A stretch of DNA of 64,000 nt, taken from positions 1,408,001-1,472,000 of the forward strand of contig CP169074.1 in assembly GCA_041891055.1 (NCBI GenBank), in the 5' to 3' direction. Shown here piece after piece: positions 55,806-57,882 of this stretch (its first letter is position 1; each line of letters begins with the position of its first letter). The translations under genes were made by a program, and so were the position numbers. This DNA is from Halorutilales archaeon Cl-col2-1. Its GTDB lineage: Archaea > Halobacteriota > Halobacteria > Halobacteriales > Afararchaeaceae. Below the pieces are notes generated by a model, which was not told the origin of the DNA, searched no databases, and was given only the letters and a program-made list of their open reading frames with translations.

Positions 55806-55898
55806 CTACTTCTACGTACGTCTCCACCGATATAATGCCTTGTGCCTTCTGCTAAAATCCGATACATTCTTTAATCCGAGAGACTAAGATGTGGGTGA

Positions 55899-55972
55899 GG
55901 GTTCGTGGTCTAGCTGGTTATGACACCTCCTTGACATGGAGGAGGTCCCCAGTTCGAATCTGGGCGAACCCA
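55899..55972 (+). tRNA. tRNA-Val(GAC), CCA not encoded
   Basis: Acceptor GGGTTCG/CGAACCC, anticodon arm CCTCC-TTGACAT-GGAGG, T arm CCCAG-TTCGAAT-CTGGG; TTTAAT box at about 55870. Confidence 0.96.
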
Positions 55973-56944
55973 TGAACGATTTTACGAGTGAATGGTGAGA
56001 ACAGATTCGGATCAGGGAACGTCGTGACCGTGGTTCAAATCTGGGCGAACCCATGAACGATTTTACGAGTGAATGGTGAGAACAGATTCGGATCAGGGAA
56101 CGTCGTGACCGTGGTTCAAATCTGGGCGAACCCATGAACGATTTTACGAGTGAATGGTGAGAACAGATTCGGATCAGGGAACGTCGTGACCGTGGTTCAA
56201 ATCTGGGCGAACCCATGAACGATTTTACGAGTGAATGGTGAGAACAGATTCGGATCAGGGAACGTCGTGACCGTGGTTCAAATCTGGGCGAACCCATGAA
56301 CGATTTTACGAGTGAATGGTGAGAACAGATTCGGATCAGGGAACGTCGTGACCGTGGTTCAAATCTGGGCGAACCCATGAACGATTTTACGAGTGAATGG
56401 TGAGAACAGATTCGGATCAGGGAACGTCGTGACCGTGGTTCAAATCTGGGCGAACCCATGAACGATTTTACGAGTGAATGGTGAGAACAGATTCGGATCA
56501 GGGAACGTCGTGACCGTGGTTCAAATCTGGGCGAACCCATGAACGATTTTACGAGTGAATGGTGAGAACAGATTCGGATCAGGGAACGTCGTGACCGTGG
56601 TTCAAATCTGGGCGAACCCATGAACGATTTTACGAGTGAATGGTGAGAACAGATTCGGATCAGGGAACGTCGTGACCGTGGTTCAAATCTGGGCGAACCC
56701 ATGAACGATTTTACGAGTGAATGGTGAGAACAGATTCGGATCAGGGAACGTCGTGACCGTGGTTCAAATCTGGGCGAACCCATGAACGATTTTACGAGTG
56801 AATGGTGAGAACAGATTCGGATCAGGGAACGTCGTGACCGTGGTTCAAATCTGGGCGAACCCATGAACGATTTTACGAGTGAATGGTGAGAACAGATTCG
56901 GATCAGGGAACGTCGTGACCGTGGTTCAAATCTGGGCGAACCCA
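55973..56944 (+). repeat. 12 x 81-bp perfect tandem array, each unit ending in a copy of the tRNA-Val 3' end
   Basis: Unit TGAACGATTTTACGAGTGAATGGTGAGAACAGATTCGGATCAGGGAACGTCGTGACCGTGGTTCAAATCTGGGCGAACCCA; last 21 nt match the tRNA 20/21. Confidence 0.97.
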
Positions 56945-57084
56945 CTGATCTAACTTTTGTGAGGGGAATACTGAATACAGTTCGAACCAGAGAAGAGAGC
57001 GCGCTGTGACCTTATTCTTCTAACAGAGTTAGACTCTTATCCCACCAGCACCCTTAAGGTGTATGGCTACGTCCATACACATAG

Positions 57085-57387
57085 ATGCAAGACGGGGGTG
57101 TAGACGAGGAGCCCGACTACCGTATAAATCTACCATCGGGTACTGTCGTCGACGTAACCATAAACAAAGTTGAACCTTGGGAGAAGTATCCAGAAGGATG
57201 GCATTACGGTCTCCATTACGGAACACGCGAGGGTGAAACACTCCTACGGTATGACAACGGACACAACGACGACGAACACCACCGCCACACCCCAGACGGT
57301 GACGAGACTGTGGAGTTTCCGGGTATGGAAGAGCTATACAGACGTTTCCTCGAAGAGGTGAGACAGCATGAACAAGAAAGAAACTGA
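57085..57387 (+). CDS. DUF6516/TumE-like toxin
   Basis: YPEG.HY.LHYG...GETLLRYDNGH....HHRH; leaderless, TTAAG box about 28 nt upstream. Confidence 0.75.
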   Translation: MQDGGVDEEPDYRINLPSGTVVDVTINKVEPWEKYPEGWHYGLHYGTREGETLLRYDNGHNDDEHHRHTPDGDETVEFPGMEELYRRFLEEVRQHEQERN

Positions 57388-57769
57388 ATCCGAGACAGAG
57401 ACCGAGACCACGCTTCACGTCAAGTATATGGAGTCCGACAAGGCTCTCGAAAAGCCGCTCGAAGGCATAAGGGAGATGGAAGAGGGCGGCGAGCCCGACG
57501 AGACACCGATGGTGATCGTCACCACGAAGGAAGACCTCAACCGCGTGACACGTGACACGACTATCGACCTCATAAACGCCGTCGCGAAACACGAGCCCGA
57601 GAGCATACGTCAGACTGCACGTCTCGTCGACAGGTCGCCGATAGACGTAAAGAAAAACCTCGACGAACTGGAGAGAATAGGTCTGATCCGTCTCGAGGAG
57701 GAGGACGGCGCGAAACGTCCCGTCGTATGGTACGATACGCTCGACCTCGAAGTTCCGGTTTCGGCGTAA
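57368..57769 (+). CDS. wHTH antitoxin-like protein (HVO_A0114/TumA-like)
   Basis: PESIRQTARLVDR....V..NLDEL...GLI, AKRPVVWYD; overlaps toxin gene. Confidence 0.75.
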   Translation: MNKKETESETETETTLHVKYMESDKALEKPLEGIREMEEGGEPDETPMVIVTTKEDLNRVTRDTTIDLINAVAKHEPESIRQTARLVDRSPIDVKKNLDELERIGLIRLEEEDGAKRPVVWYDTLDLEVPVSA

Positions 57770-57882
57770 GCGTCAGACTCGTCTGACATACGGTTACGTT
57801 TAGATCTATCTCAAGACGGATAATTCTACTCGACACTACGCAACCTGTAAAGAGTTAAACCCGAGATACGTCTATCTTCTGT

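Follow-up and report, generated by a model that had tools for sequence, protein, structure and literature searches.

Why should one tRNA gene be followed by twelve identical 81-bp units, each of which rebuilds the 3′ end of that same tRNA? The question is raised by the tRNA-Val gene of Halorutilales archaeon Cl-col2-1, and we addressed it in the window, that is, the whole 64,000-nucleotide stretch of DNA analysed here (C1:1408001-1472000 of a 2.06-Mb genome). Four contigs, of 1.94 Mb, 116 kb, 10 kb and 3 kb, make up the assembly, which is 99.5% complete and has a G+C content of ~55%; the relatives of this genome are small-genome haloarchaea. We conclude that the array is probably a 12-fold tandem amplification of one 81-bp haloarchaeal cassette, a hairpin based on the tRNA 3′ end that would originally have been inserted in the T loop.

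The tRNA-Val locus and its repeat units

The tRNA-Val(GAC) gene is the only tRNA gene in the window, on which ARAGORN and Rfam agree. Two MoeA genes and a HAD hydrolase gene lie upstream of it, and the array is followed by a TumE/HVO_A0114 toxin–antitoxin pair and then by cysS. The features of the locus are listed below; the sister species mentioned here and later is G001, the only other genome of the genus and a 120-contig draft.

55899–55972, forward strand: tRNA-Val(GAC) gene (ARAGORN; Rfam tRNA at 65 bits)
55952–55972, forward strand: block D, the last 21 nt of tRNA-Val, from G53 to the discriminator
55973–56944, forward strand: array of 12 identical 81-bp units (Tandem Repeats Finder and unit comparison)
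55973–55994, forward strand: trailer part of unit 1, with a T4 run at 55980–55983 (sequence)
55995–56013, forward strand: left arm of unit 1, an imperfect complement of the tRNA 3′ end (cmsearch alignment to covariance model R1; RNA fold)
56014–56032, forward strand: conserved loop of unit 1, AGGGAA-N-GTGACCGTG, common to modules at other tRNA genes
56033–56053, forward strand: tRNA 3′-end copy of unit 1 (A57 form), the right arm of the hairpin
56924–56944, forward strand: final tRNA 3′-end copy, abutting the native trailer
56945–56961, forward strand: native tRNA trailer ctgatctaacttttgtg, 17 nt, conserved in the sister species after its last 3′-end copy
57085–57387: TumE, within the segment 56962–57848
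57368–57769: HVO_A0114-like, within the segment 56962–57848

An earlier, sequence-only reading of this DNA had described a tRNA-Val gene followed by 12 identical 81-bp units, and both the description and its coordinates proved correct. ARAGORN located the gene, Tandem Repeats Finder returned a repeat at 55952–56944 with a period of 81, 12.3 copies, 99% matches and no indels, and only one distinct sequence was present among the 12 units, which also bears out the statement that the array has no unique spacers. The trailer part of unit 1 accordingly recurs every 81 bp. Genome-wide, the 81-mer had 12 matches, every one of them inside the tRNA-Val array. Each unit consists of 60 nt plus a 21-nt copy of block D, and this 21-mer occurred 13 times in the window (12 exact copies, and the tRNA's own with one mismatch), where none was expected by chance (100 shuffles). 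The sole difference between the tRNA and the repeat copies is at T-loop position 57, which is G in the tRNA and A in the units. Perfect identity had been said to start inside the T-loop, in agreement with the start found here, at G53 of the T arm. The same reading had reported no integrase gene in the window, and we agree: the genome has 11 matches to PF00589 (Phage_integrase), none of which falls within it.

Two candidate features of the array were rejected. An older, degenerate copy of the tRNA T arm hidden in the 60-nt core was not supported, as 284 of 2000 shuffles scored equally. A minus-strand open reading frame runs through the array (55884–56945, 353 aa), and stays open because 81 is 27 × 3. 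Its product is a very basic 27-aa repeat, unlike the acidic proteins of haloarchaea, and its Pfam hits included no passing stretch; this frame is probably not a gene.

Beyond the native trailer, and before the cysS promoter, lies an 887-bp segment (56962–57848) that contains the TumE/HVO_A0114 pair. It is missing in the sister species, where its flanks abut, and its G+C content drops to 51%.

Related modules at other tRNA genes

In a whole-genome scan, 10 of the 43 tRNA genes had their own 3′ end repeated exactly 40–119 nt downstream (Phe, Thr-GGT, Lys-CTT, Ser-TGA, Leu-CAA, Tyr, Val-GAC, Ile, Arg-GCG and Leu-TAG). The copies at all ten start at G52/G53 (GTTCRAATC...) and reach the discriminator, and at several they extend into the trailer (by 40 nt at Arg, 30 nt at Thr and ~68 nt at the Ile locus of the sister species). 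The inserts follow a common plan, in which a T-rich trailer comes first, then an inverted and imperfect repeat of the 3′ end of that same tRNA, and then a conserved loop (yAGGGAA, 5–7 nt, GTGACCG, 1–2 nt). The Val unit conforms to this plan, with its trailer, left arm, loop and 3′-end copy. The sister species has no loop with 3′-end copy at Lys-CTT, and no copy at Phe.

Larger spacings were seen at three tRNA loci of the same genome. At tRNA-Phe (C1:527727-530403), past the small module, an extra 3′-end copy with one mismatch lies 2.5 kb downstream; several open reading frames of 70–176 aa fill the interval, with no integrase domain listed, and we take it to be a gene-bearing unit with the same boundary. 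At tRNA-Glu-CTC (C1:1277907-1335129), a 3′-end copy of ~40 nt, as judged from context, lies 57 kb from the gene, and three integrase-domain genes are found near the tRNA end of the interval, which has the appearance of a classical island. A pair of tRNA-Gln(TTG) genes is separated by 5 kb (C1:1799511-1804508).

The same anatomy recurs across haloarchaea: a copy of the final 21–22 nt of the tRNA, from G52/G53 to the discriminator, a T-rich trailer, an arm complementary to that end, and a loop of the form CAGGGA...GACCGNG. A strict pattern was present in 4 of 101 genomes, only in this genus and one other family (reversed control, 0), and a relaxed pattern in 130 of 201 genomes of the order (reversed control, 0 of 201). 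From 14 other genomes we took 60 pattern-selected loci, 52 of which showed an ARAGORN tRNA followed by one to four 3′-end copies (≤4 mismatches) with inserts of 45–311 nt.

We then used a covariance model, R1, built from 45 hairpins of other genomes, with the source genome and the Val locus of the sister species left out. R1 recognized the left arm and loop in all 12 Val units (51.5 bits, E 7e-12), which lie directly downstream of the tRNA on the same strand and end in its 3′-end copy from G52/G53. It found 11 further tRNA-linked loci in the source genome. In a phylum-wide sample it matched 19 of 20 haloarchaeal genomes, with 1–30 matches each, and none of 130 genomes of other families. The suggestion that related cores with locus-specific 3′ ends might occur at other tRNAs was therefore confirmed, at 11 other tRNA genes in this genome and throughout the haloarchaea. 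In other genomes each tRNA has one to four units, often of differing types and in shuffled order, and among the R1 matches listed no other genome has more than two that are adjacent. The Val array is thus apparently the amplified tip of a large unannotated family.

A cmscan against Rfam 15 at E up to 1 returned tRNA only, and no family for the modules. The exact 32-nt core had no match in viral, metagenome and genome contig collections, from which the source genome and very near ones were possibly excluded. Weak core matches in two genomes (G058 and G011) lay in tRNA-free, apparently coding DNA and are due to chance. No description of the modules was found in the main text of openly accessible papers, and the family is, provisionally, apparently undescribed so far.

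Units of a second kind were seen in other haloarchaea (L081, L091, L083 and L089), where a different hairpin, resembling a two-way terminator, lies between T5 and A5 runs. As this hairpin replaces the CAGGGA...GACCG loop in some units, the modules carry several unrelated types of cargo.

The modules fold as long imperfect hairpins, with the tRNA 3′ end as the right arm. The left arm was a better fit to the 3′ end of its own tRNA than to the ends of other tRNAs in 104 of 113 modules. When a structure of 21 pairs was laid over the 45 hairpins, 82% of cells were paired, compared to 75% in shuffles, and the covariation score was 0.224, compared to 0.113 in shuffles; none of 500 shuffles reached 0.224, and controls in which the structure was slid gave ≤0.071. 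Compensatory exchanges were found between T-loop position 57 and its partner (UA 29, CG 12), at inner stem pair 1 (GC 26, AU 16) and at inner stem pair 2 (CG 23, UA 11, GC 9). A hairpin that is conserved and covaries in this way implies a folded single strand, of RNA or DNA, under constraint.

Is that strand RNA? The sequence-only reading had suggested, as one option, a tRNA read-through transcript cut into 81-nt RNAs. If the units were functional RNAs, read-through from the tRNA promoter would give a chain of hairpins, each with a 3′ strand resembling an acceptor/T arm, RNase P and tRNase Z would cut the chain into RNAs of ~60–80 nt, and the array would raise their dose. The conserved hairpin with its compensatory changes is what such RNAs would show, and the right arm stops exactly at the discriminator. 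The E. coli tyrT–rtT repeats provide a precedent. Strand tests for an RNA or DNA hairpin gave mixed results. The sense strand was the better fold in 93 of the 111 unique hairpins with a strand difference (112 were folded), and in the fixed structure G.T pairs outnumbered A.C pairs by 45 to 27 overall and by 42 to 11 in the core. In the outer stem, however, A.C pairs exceeded G.T pairs, and a count over the arm alignments gave 41 A.C and 8 G.T pairs, a count that is confounded by the C-rich 3′ ends. Many module loops contain GCGAAGC, which we take to be an unusually stable DNA mini-hairpin and treat as a hint only.

Other observations weigh against the RNA interpretation. Modules occur at only about a quarter of tRNA genes, they vary between sister species and are stacked in variable order, and every 3′-end copy, at the other loci as well as at tRNA-Val, is followed by a T-rich trailer, like the terminator region of an ordinary tRNA. 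The Val unit does adopt the hairpin of the family, of which it is a degenerate member: on its own it folded at −23 kcal/mol with a z score of −0.97, which is not better than shuffles. Overall, we consider it unlikely that the units are kept as functional RNAs.

A proposed route from one unit to twelve

The sister species provides the comparison for the copy number. Its locus runs from the HAD gene and tRNA-Val through a single 60-nt core (98% identity) to a 21-nt 3′-end copy of the G57 type, and continues with a different segment of ~144 nt, a third 3′-end copy, the 17-nt native trailer and, directly, cysS. Metagenome contigs from four runs were sister-like only, with G at 55979, a single core and the sister sequence after 56961; as assembled contigs, they are uninformative on array copy number. 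As the sister species has a single copy of this unit, one Val unit is ancestral and the 12 copies represent a recent amplification. The source genome lost, or never had, the second Val unit of the sister species; it gained the 887 bp with the toxin–antitoxin pair and amplified the first Val unit.

That second unit of the sister species (L012 1340-1479, ~144 nt) has a GC-rich hairpin and is absent from Halorutilales archaeon Cl-col2-1, and the tRNA-Val 3′-end copy that closes it has GG in the T loop.

Two substitutions help to order the events. A57 and a second A, at position 7 of the core, are present in all 12 units, whereas the tRNA still has G57 and both positions are G in the sister species; the amplification therefore postdates both changes. 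The presence of A57 in the 12 copies and of G57 in the tRNA also places the first duplication junction 3′ of position 57, within 16 identical bases and not at G53/T54. The left arm of the array still pairs with the G57 form of block D (R1 alignment); in unit 1 the pairing segment is CAGATTCG.

Unit amplification like that of the tRNA-Val array is also seen in a CRISPR array outside the window (C1:1678722-1680902, 35 exact 30-nt repeats). One repeat-spacer unit is present five times in a row, another three times, and a two-unit block twice, and all of these duplications are perfect. Unequal recombination or slippage is thus the simplest route to 12 units. Haloarchaea are polyploid and recombine readily. 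In this step of the proposed mechanism, one ancestral Val unit would have become 12 by unequal homologous recombination or slippage, for which the 21-bp repeats would have been the substrates first and the 81-bp repeats afterwards. The sequence-only reading had offered serial integration or amplification of a minimal, non-autonomous, tRNA-targeted element. Among its suggestions this one comes closest to our findings and is supported in part, with related cores present at 11 other tRNAs; serial re-integration is unneeded and less likely than repeat-mediated amplification, because all 12 units carry A57 and the CRISPR units are duplicated alike.

Alternatively, the copy number could be an assembly artefact, and the true locus might have one or a few units. 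The count of 12 is indeed read from the assembly alone, and the perfect CRISPR duplications in the same assembly could reflect a habit of the assembler. However, the genome is in four contigs and 99.5% complete, and duplicated units are also present in the assemblies of other species. Repeats of this kind tend to be collapsed, not expanded, by short-read assemblers, and single long reads would span an array of 972 bp. An artefact is thus unlikely for a four-contig assembly and an array of this length, and we regard a true locus of one or a few units as very doubtful.

Cassette behaviour, origin and known systems

Across genomes the modules behave as cassettes. Differing loop types are stacked behind one tRNA; in two congeners tRNA-Gly is followed by the same units in a different order, and at tRNA-Met in the same pair one of the species has two copies of a unit that is single in its congener. 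Where adjacent 3′-end copies differ, the left arm was the better fit to the preceding copy in 22 cases and to the following copy in 6, with 30 ties. This split is skewed by the many cases in which the selected tRNA is itself the preceding copy; with only the second and subsequent units counted, it was 8 to 4. At L086, the arm of the second unit agrees with the preceding variant copy at both variant positions. These comparisons suggest that a unit spans from a 3′-end copy to the end of the loop, in which case the break point would be G53/T54, the left edge of the overlap used by tyrosine integrases that target the T loop.

The position of the cassettes coincides precisely with the T-loop boundary of tRNA genes, which leaves the tRNA whole and displaces the earlier 3′ end downstream. 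We propose that a cassette would originate when DNA is inserted site-specifically at the T loop, where integrases that target this loop cross over, and that an incoming cassette would bring its own tRNA 3′ end. The cassettes would be non-autonomous and served in trans, possibly as folded single strands. The same loop type at different tRNAs has tRNA-specific arms, for which simple transposition between tRNAs provides no explanation.

Searches for a partner or a source gave negative results. We identified no recombinase partner for the cassettes, and found no fresh pair of filled and empty sites that defines an insertion. In searches that needed near-exact matches, no virus, plasmid or viral contig carried the loop motifs, and a free element with a matching attP was likewise not found among viral contigs, phages and plasmids or on the small replicons of the genome itself. 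The loop-motif scan of viral contigs gave one match, which has neither T loop nor tRNA and is irrelevant, and none for the type-B motif; a type-A module had no blastn match among phages and plasmids (E 0.01). The three small replicons of the genome have no site resembling a tRNA 3′ end. A Y1 transposase was considered as a partner and showed no link to the modules: the single Y1_Tnp gene (C1:979038) is 485 kb away, in an IS-like context, and is not flanked by modules.

Could the units instead be scars of large integrative elements, that is, viruses or plasmids that entered at the T loop, were reduced to their att-flanking arms and were then amplified? Direct repeats of a tRNA 3′ end are the signature of integrase-mediated insertion, and the extra tRNA-Phe 3′ end, with open reading frames before it, would fit such an element. 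For Haloquadratum, a published report ties a 22-bp partial tRNA duplication to prophage integration (PMC3119063). Random deletions, however, would not yield, at over 100 loci, inserts of 40–190 nt built on one hairpin plan, the viral contigs, phages and plasmids searched did not contain the loop motifs, and the arm ahead of the distal tRNA-Phe copy lacks the motif. We therefore think it improbable that the units are remnants of such elements.

The extra 3′-end copies might also, as the sequence-only reading had suggested, be kept as decoy landing sites, where elements targeting the T loop would insert into a downstream copy and spare the tRNA gene. This idea is compatible with T-loop insertion and amplification as proposed above, and some arrays of other genomes fit insertions into downstream copies, in that variant copies lie in mid-array while the tRNA and the last copy are identical (L086, L087 and L118). 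Copies nevertheless decay with distance in many arrays, the sister species has lost some of them, and no sign of selection was seen; A57 may, moreover, spoil the overlap that an integrase needs. That the copies are maintained as decoys is, in our judgement, highly improbable.

A broader version of the cassette model, which we put forward tentatively and consider less likely than not, is that haloarchaeal tRNA genes may serve as platforms for a widespread class of gene-less hairpin cassettes that are inserted at the T loop and recombined as single strands by a trans-acting recombinase. Such a platform would parallel, in archaea, the recombination of integron attC sites or of the CTX phage; each insertion would swap the tRNA 3′ end for the cassette's own copy, and among the platforms seen to date the 12-unit array would be the one with the highest activity or the latest expansion.

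Provided that the family is real and mobile, its members represent a novel type of small genetic element that would repeatedly rewrite the 3′ ends of essential tRNAs across a whole archaeal order. It would account for many of the 'partial tRNA' fragments in haloarchaeal genomes, and open a way to study recombination specific to the T loop in archaea. If RNA is made from the modules, they would be an unannotated RNA family of up to 30 copies per genome. As the family is missing from Rfam 15, it is easily overlooked or misread. The 12-unit array is a natural and readily assayed locus for the questions of both mobility and RNA.

How do the modules compare with known systems? The tyrT/rtT repeats of E. 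coli (Rfam RtT) are similar in that tandem repeats directly follow a tRNA gene, each ends in a copy of the tRNA 3′ end, and the number of units changes by unequal recombination. They form a bacterial locus with longer units in about three copies. The haloarchaeal family, in contrast, serves many different tRNAs, its units include an arm that can pair with the tRNA end, and the RtT covariance model had no match in the array (cmscan at E up to 1).

The att duplications of tyrosine integrases, and CIMEs (integrase-less islands bounded by att sites, in tandem accretion), have direct repeats of the tRNA 3′ part that bound an insert, an identity break in the T loop, the newest unit next to the tRNA and units that are non-autonomous. 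The Val insert is likewise flanked by directly repeated copies of the 3′ part of the tRNA. It is only 60 nt long, however, and no integrase lies inside or beside it, where the neighbours are the HAD hydrolase, TumE/HVO_A0114 and cysS genes. Across the family, units of 60–190 nt without genes or a nearby integrase, and with a conserved hairpin that has tRNA-specific arms, set the modules apart from these systems.

Integron attC sites and the CTX-phage attP(+) are recombination sites that act as folded single strands. They too form arrays of units at one fixed site, and their units end in an imperfect hairpin with the crossover at its base. The stem covaries despite sequence variation and the order of units is shuffled among relatives, as in the modules, for which single-strand recombination is putative. 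Unlike integrons, the arrays have no intI beside them, the core misfits the integron core-site consensus, and the repeat is at least 21 nt compared to 7 nt. At tRNA-Val, no integrase with attI adjoins the array, and the window contains no tyrosine recombinase domain.

REP and BIME elements with RAYT transposases are the subject of PMC2817692. Such elements share with the modules short palindromic units with alternating orientation, conserved linkers, tandem amplification and a position at gene 3′ ends. [quoted passage not shown]

Two further systems were rejected. The Val array resembles a CRISPR in its short direct repeats at regular spacing, but its 12 'spacers' are identical and the repeat is a tRNA 3′ end; the true CRISPR repeats of the genome are 30-mers unrelated to it. 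A MITE, which has a short target duplication, would not explain a duplicated block whose left edge is fixed and whose length is 21–40 nt or more, and the insert ends lack terminal inverted repeats. Thus, while none of the known systems compared fits the modules as a family, they belong among the insertions that duplicate tRNA ends.
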